The position numbers and the translations under genes were made by a program. From Eledone cirrhosa (lineage: Eukaryota): a DNA stretch of 64,000 nucleotides. Positions within the stretch are counted from its first letter, which is position 1, and each line of letters starts with the position of its first letter. Below, piece after piece: positions 692 through 62,131 of this stretch. Below the pieces are notes generated by a model. It was not told the DNA's origin, did no database searches, and saw only the letters and a list, made by a program, of their open reading frames with translations. Location: contig OZ024746.1 of NCBI GenBank assembly GCA_964016885.1, forward strand, positions 19,344,001-19,408,000. Reading direction: 5' to 3'.

Positions 692-18769
<18,078 letters not shown>

Positions 18770-21469: not shown

Positions 21470-21992
21470 TGTGGTGGGTTGGCAGAATCAGTAGAGTGTC
21501 GGACAACATGCTCTGCTGCATAACATTACATCCCTTTATGTTCTGAGTCCAAATTCTGCCGAGGTTAACTTTGCCTTTCATCCGGGGTCGATAAAATAAA
21601 GCACCTGTAACGTACTGGAGTCGATTTAATCGACTTTCCCCTTCCCCCAAATTACTGGCCTTGTGCCTATAGTAGAAATCATTATTATGGGGTTGATAAA
21701 ATAAAGTACCAGTAATGCACTGGGTCGATTTAATCGACTTTCCCCTTCTCCCAAATTACTGGCCTTGTGCCTATAGTAGAAATCATTATTATGGGGTTGA
21801 TAAAATAAAGTACCAGTAATGCACTGGGTCGATTTAATCAACTTTCCCCTTCCCCCAAATTACTGGCCTTGTGCCTATAGTAGAAATCATTATTATGGGG
21901 TTGATAAAATAAAGTACCAGTAATGCACTGGGTCGATTTAATCGACTTACCCCTCCCGCCAAAATTGTTGGCCTTGTGCCTAAATCAGAAAC
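21470..21992 (+). mobile_element. SINE family A copy with its 3' half amplified 4x in tandem (104-bp period)
   Basis: ggggtYgataaaataaag anchors at 21584, 21689, 21793 and 21897. Confidence 0.88.

Positions 21993-33567: not shown

Positions 33568-33633
<66 letters not shown>
33568..33633. repeat. (TA)n microsatellite
   Basis: Direct reading; other long TA arrays at ~3337-3372, 20600-20647, 26956-26997 and 34417-34451. Confidence 0.95.
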
Positions 33634-33637
<4 letters not shown>

Positions 33638-33681: not shown

Positions 33682-33742
33682 TTTATTATATATATTTCAA
33701 GGGCGACCAAGCCAATCTTGGTGCACTTTCATCAGATAAAAT
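33682..33742 (-). ncRNA. Hammerhead-ribozyme-like motif (stems I and III degenerate)
   Basis: Minus strand: CTGATGA-aagtgcaccaag(attgg)cttggtcgccctt-GAAA-tatata. Confidence 0.5.
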
Positions 33743-46900: not shown

Positions 46901-48580
46901 ACCAATGAAATATGTAGAGATATAGACAACCAATGAAATATGCAGATACAGATGACCAATGTAATATATAGTGATATATAGATGGCCAATGAAATATGCA
47001 GAGATATACTTACAGCTGCAGGAGCAGCAGAATAAGTTCTGACTGGAGACATTCCTGATGATAATCCACCCAATCCAGATGCAATAGCTTTGTTGTGTAT
47101 AGCACTTGCTGAGACAATCTGTGCTGAGGACATTGAAGCCATACTTTGGAGAGCTTTATCTTTGGCAGCTTGATCCTAATGAAAAGCAACATAATAAGCA
47201 TGGAAAGTAAAATAACAGCTCTTACTTGTATCTCTACTACAACAACAACAAAAAAAAAATGATAAATATTAAGACTTCATACTAGGCAATAAACTCAAAC
47301 TATTATGAGCGAAATTTCATTGCCATTTATAATTTTATATCTATTTTCCATGTCAGTAGATATGTGCAAACTTGGGTTCTGATATAATTTCCCTCTATTT
47401 TTAATTATCTTTGAAGTCTTAGAATTGAAATAGAAATAGACGCATCACTGTAACATTCACAATATAATATAGTCTAATAATAGGGAATATAAACCCACTG
47501 AATGGAAAAAGATTGGTCTTTGTTTACATATTAAGTCAGTTTCAAAAAACAATGGAAAAAGCTGGGTGGGTTCATTGGCATAATGGTAGCCTACTTGTCC
47601 AGCAAACGAGAGGTGTGGGTTTGTCTCCCATGTGTACTGATACCAATTTTTTCCCTTTTGCTGTTTATATACGCCCCATTATTATATTATATTATGTAGT
47701 CAATGTTATGGTGATGCTTCTATTTTTATTTCAATTCTAAAACTTTGCTCGCTGTATTTAATTCAATAAAATACTAGCTTTGTTGGGCACCTTTTCCTAA
47801 TTAGAGACAGTAATAGCGAAAAATGATGAAATTTGACAAAATAATTAATGCATACCTCAGTTGTTTTATACTTTATTTGTGAAATATCTTTATGGTAAAT
47901 TAAAGTATAGCATAAAATTGCTTTTAATACTTCAAATATAAACCATAAACCTCAAAACTAAATTTGAAAAGGTTAATTATTTGTAATTAAAATTACAATT
48001 TCAATTACATATAATTAAATGAATCAATTAACTTAGCTATTTCCTATTTTTAATATTATTTAAATATGTTTATTTTTATAACTAATGTATTCACTTATTG
48101 CTTAATAATAAATAAATTGACATAATAAAAAAAATTTCCAATTAACTTTTTCTCAAATCTTATTTATAATAATGCCTCCAATGTAATTAATTACCGTATA
48201 TATTTGTGTATAAACCAATCTGAATGTAACCCCCTCCCACATGTCTGAGCATAAAATCCAAACTTAGTGTATAAGCCGACACAACTAATCAAAAGATGTT
48301 TAGATAGCACAATTTCGTAAATTGTTTCAAGAATATTTTTATAATGTTTTAACATTTTGATATCTAAAATGTTTTTCAGTGTTGTTTAGAGTATAGTTTT
48401 TGTTTCACAATTCCATTACATAATGATTTTTTACCATTTCATCGGTTTTGTAAAGTTTTAATAAGTTTCTCGAATTTTGGTTTACTTCCTTTTAGCAGAC
48501 AACAATAGCGCCATCTTCTGAATGTAACAGGTTTTTATTTAACATATAAATCAAATGAAACATCTGTGTGTGTACACTAA

Positions 48581-48637
<57 letters not shown>

Positions 48638-49401
48638 AATATGCACATACACACACACACACACATATAAATATGCACACACACACAGACACATAAATAT
48701 GCACATACACACACACACATATAAATATGCACATACACACACACACACATAAATATGCACATACACGCACACACACATATATATATATATATATATGAGA
48801 AATAGGATTTCGCTTCAAGCATAGCTTTATACAATATGTATAAATATTTCGTATCTCCAAGGAAATACGGTTTTAGGAAGCTGTAGCTATGGAAACAGCG
48901 GCGGGGGGGGGGGGGGGGGGGGCTAACGCCCCCTGGTGATATGCTTGAAGCAAAATCCTATTTCTTTTTTATTATAAGTTGAGCCAACTTATGCAGCTTC
49001 ATATGCAAATGAGATTAATCACCTCATTTACACAGACGAGAAAAGTATATATTCTCGCCTGTCTTCTAGTCCAGCAGTAGCAAGCGGTGGGAGGGACCGT
49101 CCTGACGAAGGCCAGTTAAGCCTGAAATGCATAGTCGGTTGTCCCCCTTGCTTCTGCTGGACATTTACCAGAGGGCGTTAGCCCCCCCCCCCCCCGTGTT
49201 TGCATCAGTATTTCCTTGGAGATACGAAATATTTATACATACATACATACATACACATATATATATATATAGCCAGGAGTGCTATTAAGTTAGACATGGC
49301 CTGGGCCAATACTGGCTGAAAGTTATCAAAGTTATATATATGTTAAGTATTTCCATAGAAAAAGTAAAGGAAAGAAGAGTGCTCTATGTATTGTACAGAG
49401 C

Positions 49402-49434
<33 letters not shown>

Positions 49435-52203
49435 AGTTTATGTGGTTGTAAGTATATGTGCGTGTCAATGTTTCATTATATTTATAAAAGTAGGTTTGTA
49501 AGTTTTATATTTATTATAACAGTATTTCAGTATTGGACAAGATATATATAGAACTACAGGTACTTAAGTTTTGTTGGGTTATACACCCAACTCATTCAGT
49601 CTGAATGAGTTTGGGTGAATAACCCCAAAAAACGTAAGTACCTGTATGTGTAACTGTTGTAACTAATTATACTTAACTCATTCTATGGACTGAGTGCTCT
49701 TACCCTAGGATATTTCTACCAAACTTGTACTGCAGTATACACACACATATCTGTATATATATGTATCATCATCATCATCATTTCATTTTACGTCCACTTT
49801 TCCCTGCTTGCAAGGGTGGGACGGGAACTGATTCTGGCTTGATTTCTACAGCTGGATGCCCTTCCTAACACCAACCTCATTTACAGTGAGTGCTGGGTGC
49901 TTTTTTGCCGTGGCACCTCCACGACCACTTTGCAGTGGAATGATAGGGACCCCAGTCCCTATCATCTCATTTCTACAGCTGAGTAAACTGGAGCAATGTG
50001 AAATAAAGTGCCTTGCTCAAGGAAACAACACATCACCCGGTCTGAGAATTGAACTCACAATCTTTCGATTGCAAGGCCAATGCTCTAACCACTAAGCCAT
50101 GTGATACACACATATAACTACAGGGTATTGCCCTGACTTCAGTTCGTTTCCTTTACAACTTTCATAAAAGTACATATTTTGTAGATATATTTTCCGAATG
50201 TGTGCATTACAAATACGATGATAAAATTTAAAAAAATTAAATATTATCATTTTCCCTTTTCACTCATGGGAATTCCCATAAGTATCTCTATGTATCACTC
50301 CTGATATTTTGGTGCCTTTTTTATGTAGATGTTGAAGTTGGTGAAAATTGGCAAAATATTGATCTTGAGTATAAGCTCCCCCCCCCCCCCCCCCCCAATT
50401 GATTTTTCTCTCCCCCTCTCCACCCCACATATCCATCAACGTATACACAAGTATGTACGGTATATCTATTCATGCAACCAAATCTCTAGACAACCTTTTG
50501 GATAGTAAAATCTTTAAAATTCTTATTTTAGTATATTTAAAAAAATATTACTGTTATTGTCCAAAACTGACGACCCACTCCGCAGCGCTCACTATGATCA
50601 CTTCCTCTCCTATTTTCTCTCTCATATTCTCACTTCTTCATACTGCCACTCTGCAGCTCTCACTATGATCACTTCCTCTCCTATTTTCTCTCTCATATTC
50701 TCACTTCTTCATACTGCCACTCTGCAGCTCTCACTATGATCACTTCCTCTCCTATTCTCACTTCTTCATACTGCCACTCACCATTATCACAACAATATTG
50801 TTATAGAAATTGTATTTTAAACAATTGAAGGCAATATTGTCCACGTATATCAAGGAGAACATGGCTATGGTCCCATACCATGCCATACCATAGCCATGGA
50901 GATGCAGGGCTGCTGTAGTGGCATACAATGTTTTTTGAGCATTTTTTCAGCCTGGCAGAGCCTATCACCTCTCCAGGTCTGAATACAGAAGATTTCTTCC
51001 AGAGAAGGATAGAGAGTAAATGGAAGTGAGAAAGAGATATAGAGAAGAATTGACCCCAATATTAGACTGGTACTTTTCTTATCAATGTCAAAAGGATGAG
51101 AGGCAAGGTTGACCTTGGCAGGATTTGAACTCAGAGACCAGAGAGCTGAAACAAATACCATAAAGCATTCTCTCCGATGTTCTAATGACTCTGCCAATTT
51201 GCCACCTAAAGAAGACATCAAAGTAGCAAACTTTCTTATTCCACTATTTTATAACTTTAACATTTTTTTTTTATTAAATGTTTTAAAAATTACTTCATTA
51301 TTTTTTTTTATTTCCCTTTCATATTTCACTATTTATAAGTTTTGATCTTTCTTTAAAAGTTACCAAAAGAAAACACTGAACAATGCCATAGTATATACAT
51401 ACAAAGAGATGAGATAATGCATATATTATACAAAAAGATGAGGTAATGCATATATTATACAAACCAGGTGAAAAACCACACCCGGAGAGTGGTTTTTCAC
51501 CTGGTAACTATGATTAGAAAACTAAAGATGATAGCAATTCAATGACAAGTAAAATGATAACATGATGAAAGCAGATCCCCATTCTGTTATTCCTTAAATG
51601 CATTTTCCGTTTCCTCAAATAAATAAATATTAGATAAAGTAAAAAAAAAAAAATTCATTTGCTGTGCAAGGGAAGAAAACAATCAATATAAAACTATAAG
51701 CTGATGAAGTGGTGTGTTAATCATATATCCATTTAAAAAAAATCCTTTAACAATAGAAAGTGTGTAGAGCTATATAATTTAGAGAATAATCAGTAAAAGA
51801 AGGACAGTTATCTAAATATCCCAGAAAGGTGTTGCGTATGTGCCCTGCATATATCCATCTGCAACCTTGAAGTCAAAATATTGCAGCTAATGTAGAAAAC
51901 AAAAGATCACCAACATCTGAAAAACCAACTTATGTGAGCTTAAGTTTCTACTCACCAAACTTTAGAAAAGTTTTCCTCATCTTTCCATATTTCTATTTCA
52001 AGTCAAGGCAAATATATTTAAGATGTTTTAATTATTATAATATGACCAAATGATTTTAATTTTGATAATTATCATATGACTCTAAGAGCTGAATAAACAT
52101 ATGCTGCAAACAACCTAGTTTTTATATAGTGAGAATTAGAATTATGTTGAAAAATGATATGAATTTTCATTATTAAAAATATATATGAAAAAATATATGT
52201 ATA

Positions 52204-52251
<48 letters not shown>

Positions 52252-54105
52252 TATACATTACAAAAATAATAACATTTGGAGTGAAACAAAATGATTTATT
52301 AGAGAAGTAGTGAATGGCTAATGTGGAGAACATATGTTCCAATCCATGCCACCATAAGAAATGAATGTACAAATGTAAAACTTTTAGAAGCAGAATTGAG
52401 AGCTGGTACATGAGTTACATGTTGATATCTTTACTATAGATATTATATCATAGTCTTAGATTACATATCTGACTTTACCTGCTTCAGTCTATGTATCTGG
52501 AAGTTTAGCACTGAGAATAATAGGTAAACTGGTAGAATGCCAGAATGACTCAAAGACATTATTGTATAATTTGGTAGCATATTCTTCAGAGTTTGAGTAC
52601 TACATAGGTAGCTAAATGTGCTTTACTAGTATAGCAGAATCTTTAAGAACTATTGGATATCTTGTAACTGTAACTGCTCATAGATGGATGGATGGTCCTA
52701 TAACTTCTGAGGGGGTTGTATTGACATATGGCATTTCTAGGGCATTTGAAAATCTGATGGAGCCCATCTCCTCTCCAGGTCTGAACACAGTAGATTTCTT
52801 CCAAAGAAGGATAGAGAGGGAGAATGGAAGTGAGGAAGAATCGACTCCAGTACTTGACTGGTACTTTTTTTTTATCAACCTCGAATGGATGAAAGGCAAA
52901 GTTGACTTCTGTGGGATTTAAACTGAGAGAGTAGAGAACCAAAACCAAAACCACAAAGCATTTTATCCGACATTCTAATGATTCTGCCAATTTTCCGCCT
53001 TTAACCGCTCATGGACAACTTATTTTATGGTCAGTAAATCATGCAGTCATTTGACTGGATAAATTGTACTTTACAGTAATGATTGGAAATTTACAAGTAC
53101 CAGATGCTGTTAATAACAAAGGCCATGGAAGAGGTATATGAGGTGATGATAAAACTGTATTAACATGTATTATAAACATTGTTTGAGATTTTTGCTTTTG
53201 TATTGAAAAAAATATTTAAGGTAGATGATAAATAATAGAAGGTTGATCATAAATGCCTGTATAATCTGTCAGCCACCTATCTTTAAGCTATTCTACAGAT
53301 CATGGTGGAAGAAATCCCAAGGTTTAATCAATACAGCATATTATGATAGCATGAAATGGGGAAAAAAGGGAGTGGGGATTACAGCTCACATCTATGCATG
53401 TTTAGCTGGCTTCTTGCAAGGTTGCATCGCACAGGAGGACTCTCAGATGTTTTAATGATAGGGAGCTCAGTTTTATGAGGAAAAGCAACATACAATGAAG
53501 TGTCTTGCTCAAGAACACAATATACCATTCACCTGATATCTTGACAAATAGTATTATTGCATGTATATTGTGGAGGTGCATGGCCTAGTGGTAAAGGTGT
53601 TGGACTTATGATCATAATGTCATGAGTTCAACTCCTGAGCAAAACACTTCATTTCACATTGCTCCAGTATACTCAGCTGAAAATGAGTACCAGCAATAAC
53701 TGGGGGTTTAACCCTGTGATGGACTGGCATTCTGTCAAGGGGGAAGTCTTGTACTATCAGTCACTTCACCATGGAAACCGGAGTAAGCATCAGCCAGATG
53801 AGCCCTCGGATTCGAGACAGATTCCAGACTTTTTTTTTAGTATGTATATCACTAATTGGTCAAAATGTTGTGTTTTATTTATTGTGATGGTTAGTTAACA
53901 AAAGAGAAGGAACAGAACCAAAGAACTTTTAGGGACTATATGTAAAACATTAAACAATAAACTAAACTTACTTGTACTTTAAATTGTGCTTGGATCTCTT
54001 TTGCTTTCCGTCGAGCTAACACTTGTATGTGACTTGATACCTGTTTCCGTGTGCGCGTTTTCCCTGTACGCAATTTGATGTAACGTGCTATTAATTCATT
54101 TCGAC
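38322..54105 (-). CDS. TEAD1: TEAD/scalloped (TEF-1 family) transcription factor with TEA DNA-binding and YAP/Yorkie-binding domains; 5' exon(s) not in the window
   Basis: 10 exons join in frame, in transcript order: 54105-53972, 47175-47014, 44741-44707, 43736-43577, 43440-43378, 42362-42255, 40938-40880, 40126-40045, 39628-39476, 38435-38322 (TGA). Diagnostic peptides: [88 protein letters not shown]. The symbol denotes the family (invertebrate TEAD/sd ortholog). Confidence 0.96.
39476..39628 (-). CDS. TEAD1: TEAD exon (contains the palmitoylated-Cys motif SPMCEYM)
   Basis: [51 protein letters not shown]. Confidence 0.95.
40045..40126 (-). CDS. TEAD1: TEAD exon
   Basis: [27 protein letters not shown]. 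Confidence 0.95.
40880..40938 (-). CDS. TEAD1: TEAD exon
   Basis: [19 protein letters not shown](Q). Confidence 0.93.
42255..42362 (-). CDS. TEAD1: TEAD exon
   Basis: [36 protein letters not shown]. Confidence 0.95.
42500..43260 (-). mobile_element. Degenerate RTE-clade LINE fragment
   Basis: Minus strand [25 protein letters not shown]; purine-rich and frameshifted. Confidence 0.65.
43378..43440 (-). CDS. TEAD1: TEAD exon
   Basis: [21 protein letters not shown]. Confidence 0.94.
43577..43736 (-). CDS. TEAD1: TEAD exon
   Basis: [53 protein letters not shown]. Confidence 0.94.
43864..43938. repeat. (GT)n microsatellite
   Basis: Direct reading. Confidence 0.95.
44707..44741 (-). CDS. TEAD1: TEAD small exon (35 nt)
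   Basis: [11 protein letters not shown](D), cag/gtaagt flanks; supplies the phase 0 to 2 change needed for the next exon; resembles vertebrate FWPG..QDVKPF. Confidence 0.88.
46850..47008. repeat. ~30-bp minisatellite (~5 units) abutting a TEAD donor site
   Basis: Unit approximately gatgaccaatgaaatatgcagagatataca. Confidence 0.8.
47014..47175 (-). CDS. TEAD1: TEAD exon
   Basis: [54 protein letters not shown]. Confidence 0.94.
47414..47746. mobile_element. Fold-back element with ~115-bp imperfect inverted arms around a tRNA-like core
   Basis: ttagaattgaaatagaaatagacgcatcactgtaacatt.. versus ..aatgttatggtgatgcttctatttttatttcaattctaa; core tggcataatggtag..gggtttgtctccc. Confidence 0.7.
48798..49240 (+). 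mobile_element. Hammerhead-bearing non-coding retroelement (retrozyme or Penelope pLTR-like) with an inverted 5' segment
   Basis: Three interleaved inverted repeat pairs (one a perfect 33 bp), an internal hammerhead core, inserted in TA/CATA microsatellite. Confidence 0.7.
49095..49140 (+). ncRNA. Type I (minimal) hammerhead ribozyme motif
   Basis: gaccgtc-CTGACGA-AGGC(cagttaa)GCCT-GAAA-TGCA-TA^-gtcggtt; stem I extends through 49069-49162. Confidence 0.72.
49555..49646. repeat. 92-bp near-perfect palindrome with TA|CAGG..CCTG|TA ends (Tc1/mariner MITE-like)
   Basis: tacaggtacttaagtttt..cacccaactcattcag-t-ctgaatgagtttgggtg..aaaacgtaagtacctgta. Confidence 0.85.
50576..50780. repeat. 71-bp tandem repeat (~3 units, the last internally deleted)
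   Basis: cactcYgcagcKctcactatgatcacttcctctcc.. anchors at 50576, 50647 and 50718. Confidence 0.9.
50930..51206 (-). mobile_element. SINE A-like chimeric subfamily with a distinct tail
   Basis: Family A head and core joined to cctctccaggtctgaaYacag..agatttcttccaRagaaggatagagag; copies at ~52715-53000 and ~57990-58277. Confidence 0.7.
53572..53830 (+). mobile_element. tRNA-derived SINE family B, near full length
   Basis: A-box tggcctagtgg, B-box gagttcaactcc; body ctcagctgaaaatgagtaccagc..aaccctgtgatggactggcat. Confidence 0.75.
53972..54105 (-). CDS. TEAD1: TEAD exon (C-terminal part of the TEA domain)
   Basis: (G)[44 protein letters not shown]|gtaagt. Confidence 0.95.
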
Positions 54106-59732: not shown

Positions 59733-62131
59733 TGTAGTGAACAGAATTAAATGTATTTTCCTTTGGCGGAAGAATGGTGTCACATTTCTTTAGACTCTGC
59801 TCAACTCGAAGCTTATTCCAGAGTGAAACAGGAATTAGCTGATGTCACCCTGCTTGCACATCCTGTGCCTGATGCCCAGTTTTCACTGGTCGTTGATGCA
59901 TCAGGCACAGCAGTAGGTGCAGTTTTGAAACAGTACCACAACCAGAAGATTGAAACCACTTGCATATTTCTCAAAACAGCTTAAACCCGCTACAGTATTT
60001 TCGGCAGAGAACTGTTAGCGATGTACTTGGCAATCAAACACTTCCAGCATTCGTTGGAAGGACGCCAGTTTACGATTTTAACGGACCATCGTCCTTTGAC
60101 TTTTGCTCTCAGAGCGAAACCCGAAAGATACTCGCCACGTGAAACTCGACATTTAGATTATGTATCACAATTCACTAGTGATGTACGCCATATTCATGGA
60201 TCACAGAATTTAGCGGCAGATGCATTATCTCGTTTACTTAACTCACTATCGACAAACACTGATATTGATCTACGTTTGCTCGCTGCTGACCAGCCTGCTT
60301 TGGACGATTTGGATTTATCTGCAACCGAATTTGCGACGTGCAAATTCAAACAATTACCTTTACACAATTCTGACATGACAAGCATCCTGTGTGACATATC
60401 GACTGATTCACCTCGACCCTTCGTTCCGGAACCTCATCTGCGAACAGTTTTCGACACGTTAAACAATCTCTCATACCCTGGAATCCATTTATCAGTGAAA
60501 CTCATTACGGCTAGATTCTTTTGGCCAAATATGAGACGAGATATCACTGCATGGTCTCGTTCCTGCATACCTTGCCAGAAGTCTAAGTTGCACAAACACA
60601 TTGACCATATTCATATCGACCTAGTTGGACCTTGGCCGGTCAGTCATGGATATACATACCTTCTTACGTGTATCGACCGTTTTACACGTTGGCCTGAAGC
60701 CATTCCTCTTGAAGAGATTTCAGCAGAATCGGTAGCACGTGCTCTGATGTCTGACTGGATTTCGCGATACGGTGTCCCTTCCACGATCACCACTGACCGT
60801 GGCGGACAATTTGAATCACATCTCTTCCATGAACTTTCTAAAATCTTAGGGCTACATCGTATTAGAACTACTAGTTACCATCCGGCCTCAAATGGCATGA
60901 TAGAACGCTTTCATCGACAATTAAAAGCAGCATTGCGTGCTTATCCCGACCAGCAAAAATGGAGTGAATATCTACCAATTGTTCTTCTTGGCTGTCGCGC
61001 GGCGGTCAGGGAGGATCTCAGATATTCCCCAGCGGAGTTGCTGTACGGAACACCTTATCAGGACAGATGTTAGTCCCAGTCGACGCATCGCGGGAAGATC
61101 CTACATTATATATTAACAGTTTGCAATCATATTTCAATGATCTTCCGCCTATGGGAACACGTCAACAGACGATTAAATCTTCGGTTCCTAAAAACATTAC
61201 TTCTTGGACTCACGTTTTTCTACGTAAAGACTCAGTGAAAGGACCACTTGTGCCACCCTATACTGGACCCTACCGCGTGCTGGCAAAAACGGATAAACTT
61301 TTTACTATAGACGTTTGTGGTAGGAAACACAGTTTCTGTAGATAGGATTAAACAAGCCTTTACAGACGTTCCACCAGTTGAACCCCATACACCCCCCACA
61401 TACAATACATTGCATGTTGAACCTTCACAAGCATACTCACCCACAACATCTCACACACCGTCATTACCTTCACCTACATGTGTTACGACGACACGTAGTG
61501 GTCGTAGAGTACATTGGCCTCAGAGGTTGAGTAAAACAATCTATATATGAACTGTGATATTGTTCAAACTTTTGACTCTTATGTAAACAATTAATTTTGC
61601 TTGTTCAATTATGTTATGTTTCATGGTTTTTCTTGGTTGTATTCATGCATGTATCTTTTCTCGGTGTACCCGATGATTTGTTTTATTGTTTGATGTAATG
61701 TAGACATATTGCATATTTAGCACTACTCATGTATTGATATCGATCTGCGATCTAAACGGAGGGTACTGTAGTGAACAGAATTAAATGTATTTTCCTTTGG
61801 CGGAAGAATGGTGTCACAGAGGTAAATTGGCTGAAGTTTGAGCCAATCAAGGCCCTCAGCGGATCGAGACAAGTTGCTGGACTACTTGGACCAGAGACGA
61901 GTTCGCTGAACGACCTGGTAGCATCAAGACGTCCGACATTTGCTATGCCACATTCTTTCACATCTCCACTGGAATATGCAGCCAACACGATGTGATGACT
62001 TGCTCAATCTTCTCTTGTTATTTCGATTCCATATGTGTACAACAAATAAAAGGGAATTTTTGTTATAATGGATTATGTCGTTTTTGTCATTGCCTTCTAA
62101 ATCGATAACTATATTAATATCTCCAGCGACA
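59733..62131 (+). mobile_element. Internally deleted Ty3/Gypsy LTR retrotransposon
   Basis: 52-bp 5' LTR stub (59733-59784) identical to the start of the 3' LTR (61767-62131, TG..CA); purine tract aaacggaggg before the 3' LTR; CGTA TSD at 59729-59732 and 62132-62135; RNase H followed by integrase. Confidence 0.92.
59785..61550 (+). pseudogene. Gypsy pol remnant: RNase H, integrase (DDE) and GPY/F, frameshifted
   Basis: [79 protein letters not shown] across ORFs 59751-59984, 60021-61073, 61067-61345 and 61317-61550. Confidence 0.9.

Follow-up and report, generated by a model that had tools for sequence, protein, structure and literature searches.

How could a short hammerhead ribozyme unit come to lie in a genome beside an inverted piece of itself, one that reads across the unit's own end-to-start junction? 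This question is raised by an element spanning 48798-49241 (a 440-base insert) of the window, by which we mean the whole 64,000-nucleotide stretch of Eledone cirrhosa DNA analysed here. The sequence of the insert is as laid out in a preliminary description, which read it either as a retrozyme or as a remnant of the pLTR of a Penelope-like element (PLE). The answer that we prefer takes something from both. The element is a multi-copy, ORF-less type I hammerhead unit of about 313-341 nt, likely a non-autonomous PLE of the non-LTR retrozyme kind, and likely inserted in trans by a Penelope-type RT-endonuclease; as a whole, we judge this account to be quite probable.

The element lies within the TEAD gene. 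A TEA-domain exon was found on the minus strand at ∼54109-53990 (Pfam TEA, E 2.7e-15) and the next TEAD exon, also on the minus strand, at ∼47175, the two exons bracketing the hammerhead element. TA, CA and CATA repeats flank the element on both sides, a microsatellite target of the sort used in PLE-type insertion. With these repeats and the minus-strand exons on both sides, the earlier placement of the insertion, in a TA/CATA microsatellite and antisense within a TEAD intron, holds. A CA-(TA)n stretch occurs at either side of the element and, in such low-complexity flanks, is indistinguishable from chance as a target-site duplication. At 49242-49256, the last four bases of the unit recur three more times ahead of (TA)n, and these extra repeats could be either target sequence or the result of slippage at the start of reverse transcription. 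A BLAST search with the element returned no second copy in the 64-kb window. The coordinates of the element's parts are collected in Table 1.

Table 1. Parts of the hammerhead element and its surroundings, in window coordinates.
Feature	Position	Strand	Remarks
TEAD intronic stretch, host of the insertion	47176..53985	-	hammerhead antisense to the gene
Left flank, insertion target: mixed TA/CA microsatellite and 26-28-bp minisatellite	48577..48797	.	
Inverted, 5′-truncated arm, 140 nt	48798..48937	-	in element sense: C, long C-run, 34-nt spacer, B, linker, A
37-nt "tail" (11-nt linker and A), on the left arm only	48798..48834	-	carries the unit over its end-to-start junction
Predicted multi-stem RNA domain, tail-dependent	48798..48902	-	48886-48891 pairs with 48820-48825 around two hairpins
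Head-to-head junction of the arms	48938..48939	.	
Direct arm, 302 nt (unit minus the 11-nt linker)	48940..49241	+	starts inside the tail sequence (A′), ends at B′
Octamer motif ATGCAAAT	49003..49010	+	sole occurrence in the window; candidate promoter element
Side hairpin	49032..49062	+	varies among copies (depth dip, many alternative letters, skips)
Extended stem I, 26 predicted pairs with internal loops	49069..49162	+	fold prediction; encloses the hammerhead
Type I hammerhead	49095..49140	+	core 49102-49133, helix II 49109-49123, palindromic helix III 49127-49132
Right flank: (CATA)n, then (TA)n	49242..49272	.	few-base microhomology overlap with the unit's end

The hammerhead carries every box of the conserved core. 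A descriptor scan and a fold prediction both recovered the region described earlier as gaccgtc-CTGACGA followed by GAAA, with core boxes at 49102-49108 and 49124-49127, U16.1/A17 at 49132-49133, and the predicted cut after 49133. Helix II consists of 4 bp and a 7-nt loop, and helix III is the 6-nt palindrome that had been noted before. Stem I has 7 bp, with a T-T mismatch at its second pair (49100/49135) in the TEAD-intron copy, and continues into the long duplex that was previously put at ∼30 bp; the side hairpin likewise reappears in the fold, at much the same place. The segment 49025-49170 as a whole folds better than expected (z = -4.7; 0 of 200 shuffles equal or better). The descriptor matched two loci in the 64 kb (49102-49133, and one at 33735 on the minus strand), while shuffled windows gave a mean of 0.01 loci (n = 100; a single window with any). 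Three Rfam searches, the check that had been proposed for the hammerhead, returned no match to it at E values up to 10 and no gathering-score match anywhere in the window, which we infer to be a limit of the model for so tiny a helix III.

One part of the preliminary description has to be given up, namely the label "minimal", since the geometry is that of canonical metazoan hammerheads and not of the minimal type described from PLEs (PMC4209133). These minimal pLTR hammerheads (min-HHR) share with the present one the type I topology, palindromic positions 15.2-16.2 and a presumed activity as dimers, while in them, by the published description, helix II is long and helix I short, helix III is small or absent, and a G10.1-C11.1 pair is present (PMC4209133). 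In the TEAD-intron hammerhead, by contrast, helix II measures 4 bp and closes with A-U, helix I measures 7 bp and is continued by a long extension, and helix III is the 6-nt palindrome; on this basis, assignment to the min-HHR class was rejected. The G10.1-C11.1 pair of helix II is reported to be highly conserved (PMC4209133), and A-U as the first helix II pair may lower hammerhead activity. With a palindromic helix III, cleavage would be dimer-dependent (PMC4209133; PMC6155905; PMC7761336). Of nine predicted Xenopus retrozyme dimers, however, eight did not cleave in vitro (preprint 10.64898/2026.07.22.740005), and in view of that result and of the A-U pair, self-cleavage of the unit cannot be assumed. 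The copy in the TEAD intron is probably inert, having a single hammerhead, a mismatch in stem I, and an antisense orientation. Because the ribozyme is antisense and impaired, an effect on the TEAD gene is not expected.

Around the hammerhead, three inverted pairs had been described as interleaving in the order A-B-C-A′-[HHR]-C′-B′, and this order was borne out. A and A′ match at 25 of 26 positions and C and C′ at 28 of 29 without a gap, while B and B′ match at 34 of 34 (48835-48868 with 49208-49241), one base more than stated earlier. The linker between A and B is also present, although with B taken as 34 bp it measures 11 nt and not 12. The pairs resolve into two arms that meet head to head. 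In element sense, the direct arm begins with A′ and continues through non-coding sequence to the hammerhead, after which come C′ and B′ with 12 nt between them. The inverted arm lacks a hammerhead and breaks off 4 nt from the base of the long hairpin of stem I. At its other end it goes beyond the right arm by 37 nt of unit sequence, and this overrun leads into the right arm's start; the length of this tail is ambiguous by a few bases owing to microhomology with (CATA)n. Both arms end 108-170 nt beyond the predicted hammerhead cut. They differ from each other by a 22-nt indel and several substitutions, the spacer between C and B being 34 nt in the left arm vs. 12 nt in the right, and a run of 20 G in the left arm standing against 14 C in the right.

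Joining end to start gives a modelled unit of 313 nt with the right spacer or 341 nt with the left, at a GC content of 43.8-46%. The longest ATG frame around it is 34-40 codons, and none exceeds 40. Folded as a circle, the two versions reach z = -5.1 and -6.4 (100 shuffles each). The predicted domain at 48798-48902, which forms solely across the junction, has z = -3.99 with 0 of 200 shuffles as good, and the point at which the direct arm ends corresponds to the 3-nt loop of a hairpin predicted at 48827-48843. The octamer ATGCAAAT, a motif linked to snRNA-type promoters, occurs once in the 64 kb against ∼4.7 expected (0.025 expected per 335-nt unit), and it falls in the deepest coverage bin of the hammerhead family. 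An snRNA-type promoter has been reported for newt satellite 2 (PMC2220036). A U6-type Pol III promoter arising from the TATA-like linker was also considered and rejected, as a T-run comes directly after it.

The odd layout of the locus is the published insertion signature of PLEs, which the preliminary description had not recognized in the inverted segment and the 37-nt overrun. PLE insertions are described as often having an inverted 5′-truncated copy at the head, a 30-40-bp tail at one end, and a bias for microsatellites (PMC8557442; PMC3846280). In vitro work on an anole PLE protein showed cutting and extension of both strands of the target, with cDNA starting at two internal stem-loop sites ∼85-90 nt past the hammerhead cut (PMC11167929). 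The tail then corresponds to the stretch between the two start sites, and the template is mainly uncleaved RNA (PMC11167929). At the TEAD locus, 48798-48937 is an inverted 5′-truncated copy next to the 5′ end, as in the legend to Figure 2 of PMC8557442, and the tail of 37 nt is found on the left arm only. The likeness to EN+ PLE insertions (Arkhipova 2013, PMC3846280; Craig 2021, PMC8557442; Frangieh 2024, PMC11167929) thus covers the inverted 5′-truncated head and the one-arm tail of 30-40 nt, and it extends to a hammerhead ∼100-170 nt upstream of the ends, an AT-rich or microsatellite target, and an end in a predicted stem-loop. The difference is that in those insertions the tail enters an RT-endonuclease ORF, whereas here it returns to a 300-nt non-coding unit. 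Since a unit of retrozyme size bears the marks of PLE insertion (PMC8557442; PMC11167929), the earlier choice between a retrozyme and a pLTR remnant no longer stands as an either-or.

The element was not assigned to the autonomous PLEs, as the unit has no ORF and the two retroelement ORFs scanned in the window are of other types, one a LINE-type RT, the other an LTR-type integrase region. No autonomous PLE partner was found in the 64-kb window. In the genome of O. vulgaris, PLEs are reported to make up 6.8%, with 30 recently active Penelope families (PMC13282606).

Evidence on other copies comes from four of nine listed public sequencing runs (X1, X5, X6, and X7), which we aligned to 48790-49400 at 80% likeness. 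Here 48891-48933 and 49224-49277 were masked as repeats, which places the right-hand end of other copies outside the coverage, and 48797 G>A was left out of the junction evidence because the (TA)n flank gives an identical letter. A total of 5,984 X1 contigs align to this 611-base stretch, in which 49273-49400 belongs to two other, unrelated repeats. In the unmasked bins of the element at 48790-49188, the summed X1 depth is 1.4e4-2.2e5, a figure that is not a copy number, while the eight single X1 contigs listed have depths of 4.8-16.9 each. A summed depth so far above that of single contigs indicates that the hammerhead unit is a multi-copy family, perhaps of thousands of copies.

These copies also bear on the ribozyme. 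Position 49135 reads A, and so pairs with 49100, in 164,008 of 164,683 of the X1 depth and in 625 of 634 X7 raw reads (56 starts); the flaw in stem I is therefore private to the TEAD-intron copy or its sub-lineage. Among the 40 variant rows listed (there are 77 further ones), only N7 (49106) of the 13 core positions varies. With stem I paired in the family, the core that was first seen in the TEAD intron is thus kept in other copies. A G>A change at 49111 is present in 231 of 501 X7 reads (10 starts) and would disrupt one pair of helix II; among the variant rows listed we saw neither a compensating change for it nor two-sided stem covariation elsewhere. We saw no tandem pair of hammerheads in the contigs listed from the four runs, which are short. 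Exact-pattern scans gave 0 matches in metagenome contigs (two patterns) and 0 in prokaryote genomes.

The main alternative to a self-standing family is that an abundant autonomous PLE gave rise to the short unit, either as a rare by-product of internal deletion or as a pLTR remnant, so that the depth stems from the two ends of the parent and the short unit does not itself spread. Identical insertion marks would be expected in that case. At 49042-49104, where the side hairpin differs among copies, the depth is also lower by a factor of two to three, and a number of X1 joints leave out portions of 49027-49140; some longer-form copies could be hidden at this dip or among 509 further loose ends. 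Single contigs tell against this account. X1 records 1-3, at 82-86% identity, start in A′ (48940/48946) and reach 49117, 49074, and 49084, and records 4-6 start at 49005-49023 and reach 49157-49164. These at least six contigs, 82-88% alike, represent separate copies that are collinear over 48940-49164 in overlapping pieces, including where an ORF would sit, and being both divergent and collinear they indicate that the short unit is old and not confined to the TEAD-intron locus. In X6 record 17, the minus-strand stretch 48881-48798 passes straight into plus-strand 48966-49028 without a gap, which is the end-to-start junction, and so leads from the tail to 49028; at a depth of 6.95, this is the sole junction contig beyond the TEAD-intron locus, and it comes from a run that is nearly devoid of the family, maybe as carried-over DNA. 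The same tail end is seen in X5 record 9, which starts at 48798. Of the 24 loose ends listed, only 49163 lies inside the unit, and it is accounted for by a local indel and a shorter C-run, leaving no strong loose end there. Together with the short ATG frames and a hammerhead geometry that is canonical and not minimal, these data make a by-product or remnant unlikely. Record 17 and the X1 contigs also bear out the earlier proposal of an ORF-less unit of ∼310-340 nt with its end joined to its start.

Runs X5 and X6, which have other organism labels, gave 1 and 2 listed element contigs at a depth of 2.5-7 and 98-99% alike; these may be carried-over DNA, and they are no evidence of cross-species spread. 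One X1 contig, of depth 12, joins 49164 to 48801, so that a direct piece ending in the C block meets the tail end, a tail-to-tail order unlike that of the TEAD-intron locus.

A second alternative dispenses with a PLE enzyme and takes the element as a SINE-like or satellite repeat with a hammerhead. The inversion would then be due either to LINE-type twin priming, with a tandem locus supplying the read-through transcript, or to a fold-back rearrangement at a later time. Twin priming on one RNA of more than unit length would yield the same block order, with A duplicated at the inversion point. The indel and substitutions that separate the arms are as two neighboring units might differ, and a LINE RT fragment is present at 3764-4681. 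However, the element has no poly(A) or LINE-like 3′ tail, the 37-nt overrun is in the PLE range, and its end at 48798 recurs in X5 record 9. A type I hammerhead ∼110-130 nt from the end and the microsatellite target also fit PLEs. The arms share a long C-run (14-20 in both vs. 4-5 at the family's loose ends) and a minority letter at 48861 that is carried by 6% of the X1 depth and about half of the X7 reads, and these shared features favor the view that both arms derive from one event and one template lineage, with decay later on. We consider a LINE-based origin to be less likely still than a by-product. The three inverted pairs of 26-34 bp and the low-complexity flanks might also suggest an assembly artefact, or miniature inverted-repeat DNA transposons nested in one another, with a hammerhead by chance, but this is highly improbable. 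The pairs cross and do not form one properly nested terminal inverted-repeat pair (A/A′ crosses both B/B′ and C/C′), A-linker-B runs on unbroken at high depth elsewhere in the family, and the arms differ, unlike those of a collapsed or mirrored assembly. The family also pairs its hammerhead more fully than the TEAD-intron copy does, and shuffled windows give only ∼0.01 descriptor loci each.

If the element is indeed a non-autonomous unit mobilized by a Penelope-type enzyme, its insertion can be pictured as follows. A source locus with more than one unit would be transcribed, and the hammerhead, with its 6-nt palindromic helix III, would cut efficiently only when two copies pair. Cutting would free monomers, which could then be ligated into circles; such circularization is described for retrozymes (PMC7229834). 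The PLE enzyme would nick both strands of the AT-rich target, and cDNA would begin at two internal sites 37 nt apart in the structured 3′ domain. From the right-hand primer, synthesis would proceed from the B′ end through the uncut hammerhead for 302 nt, almost one unit, and stop inside the tail. From the left-hand primer, it would proceed from the tail end over the junction and stall after 140 nt where the long hairpin of stem I begins, and the two cDNAs would be joined head to head. Because both the junction and an intact cut site were copied, the template would have been an uncleaved multimer or a circle, and not a cut linear monomer. By chance, the right cDNA would stop within the 37-nt tail window about 1 time in 10, which is a mild hint that both cDNAs came from one molecule.

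A bolder version of this mechanism can be proposed, in which the insertion records in DNA how a PLE enzyme, beginning at two sites at once, copied a single circular retrozyme RNA, one cDNA rounding the circle to the other's start in the tail. The direct arm would then equal the unit minus 11 nt because its cDNA stopped at the start of the other. The family would be a very abundant, undescribed retrozyme of the host group, driven by an snRNA-type promoter of its own and recruiting the PLE enzyme through a dedicated RNA domain across the junction. We regard this version as speculative and, taken whole, rather doubtful; if true, the element would offer a minimal substrate for testing the integration of retrozyme circles.

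Membership of the unit among the non-LTR retrozymes is likely, as judged from its sequence. Animal non-LTR retrozymes, as described by Cervera and de la Pena (2020; PMC7229834) and by Li, Clavereau and Pollet (2026; preprint 10.64898/2026.07.22.740005), have ORF-less units of 170-400 nt, a mussel example being 350-390 bp, and are alike in GC content and in their many copies. They are also alike in their type I hammerhead with a 4-bp helix II and a weak palindromic helix III, and in their proposed dependence on PLEs. The present unit, of 313-341 nt with GC near or below 45% (43.8-46%), is non-coding and carries all boxes of a type I hammerhead, the family keeping stem I and varying in the core at N7. 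Two differences stand out. Tandem arrays, cleavage, and circular RNA have been demonstrated for those retrozymes, whereas the present family is known from its sequence, and the TEAD-intron locus holds just one unit, preceded by an inverted head that carries the 37-nt tail. Another point of comparison is offered by the Chlamys PLEs such as MRC1, which are non-autonomous, with pLTRs and head-to-tail insertions via the PLE enzyme, but which belong to a green-algal clade described as being without canonical hammerheads (PMC8557442).

A PLE origin of retrozymes has already been proposed, and non-autonomous PLEs with pLTRs are known in algae. For the mobilization of animal retrozymes by PLEs, published arguments draw on the hammerheads that the two share, on their co-occurrence, and on the phylogeny of pLTRs (PMC7229834; preprint 10.64898/2026.07.22.740005). 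Insertion marks are not used as evidence in the main text of the 2026 preprint, where the word "tail" is absent and the sole "inverted" stands in a reference. A retrozyme-sized unit with a tail and an inverted head, marks described as unique to PLE integration, therefore provides separate, mechanistic support for PLE mobilization. In the literature searched (Repbase, Dfam, subscription journals, and bioRxiv supplements lying outside the search), we found no description of such a family in cephalopods, nor of a retrozyme with head and tail, and the text and supplement of the O. vulgaris repeat paper (PMC13282606) contain 0 matches to ribozyme terms. As this kind of element is already known, the gain is moderate; the insertion marks make the idea of PLE mobilization testable, and a multi-copy family allows the two start sites to be mapped and the question to be asked whether a circle or an uncut multimer serves as the template.

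The window holds several further repeats. The second descriptor match, at 33735-33687 on the minus strand, is a type I hammerhead core with no relation to the first; its helix II is long and its helix III an AT palindrome. It lies within a ∼200-nt segment adjoining a (TA)n tract (33570-33634), ∼4.6 kb downstream of the TEAD stop and on the same strand as TEAD; the segment folds no better than shuffles (z = -1.1), and it is probably a truncated PLE end. To the right of the TEAD-intron element are two other high-copy repeats, at 49273-49335 and 49340-49400, the former abundant in all four runs, even those nearly devoid of the hammerhead family, and at 49548-49657 a MITE-like hairpin has 36-bp arms that are 89% complementary around a 20-nt loop. 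The LINE-type RT fragment at 3764-4681 is decayed, as is an LTR-type RNase H-integrase region at 59985-61345. Finally, a 104-bp unit is repeated 3.8 times with 94% matches at 21584-21982, and presumably it resembles the end of an octopus SINE.
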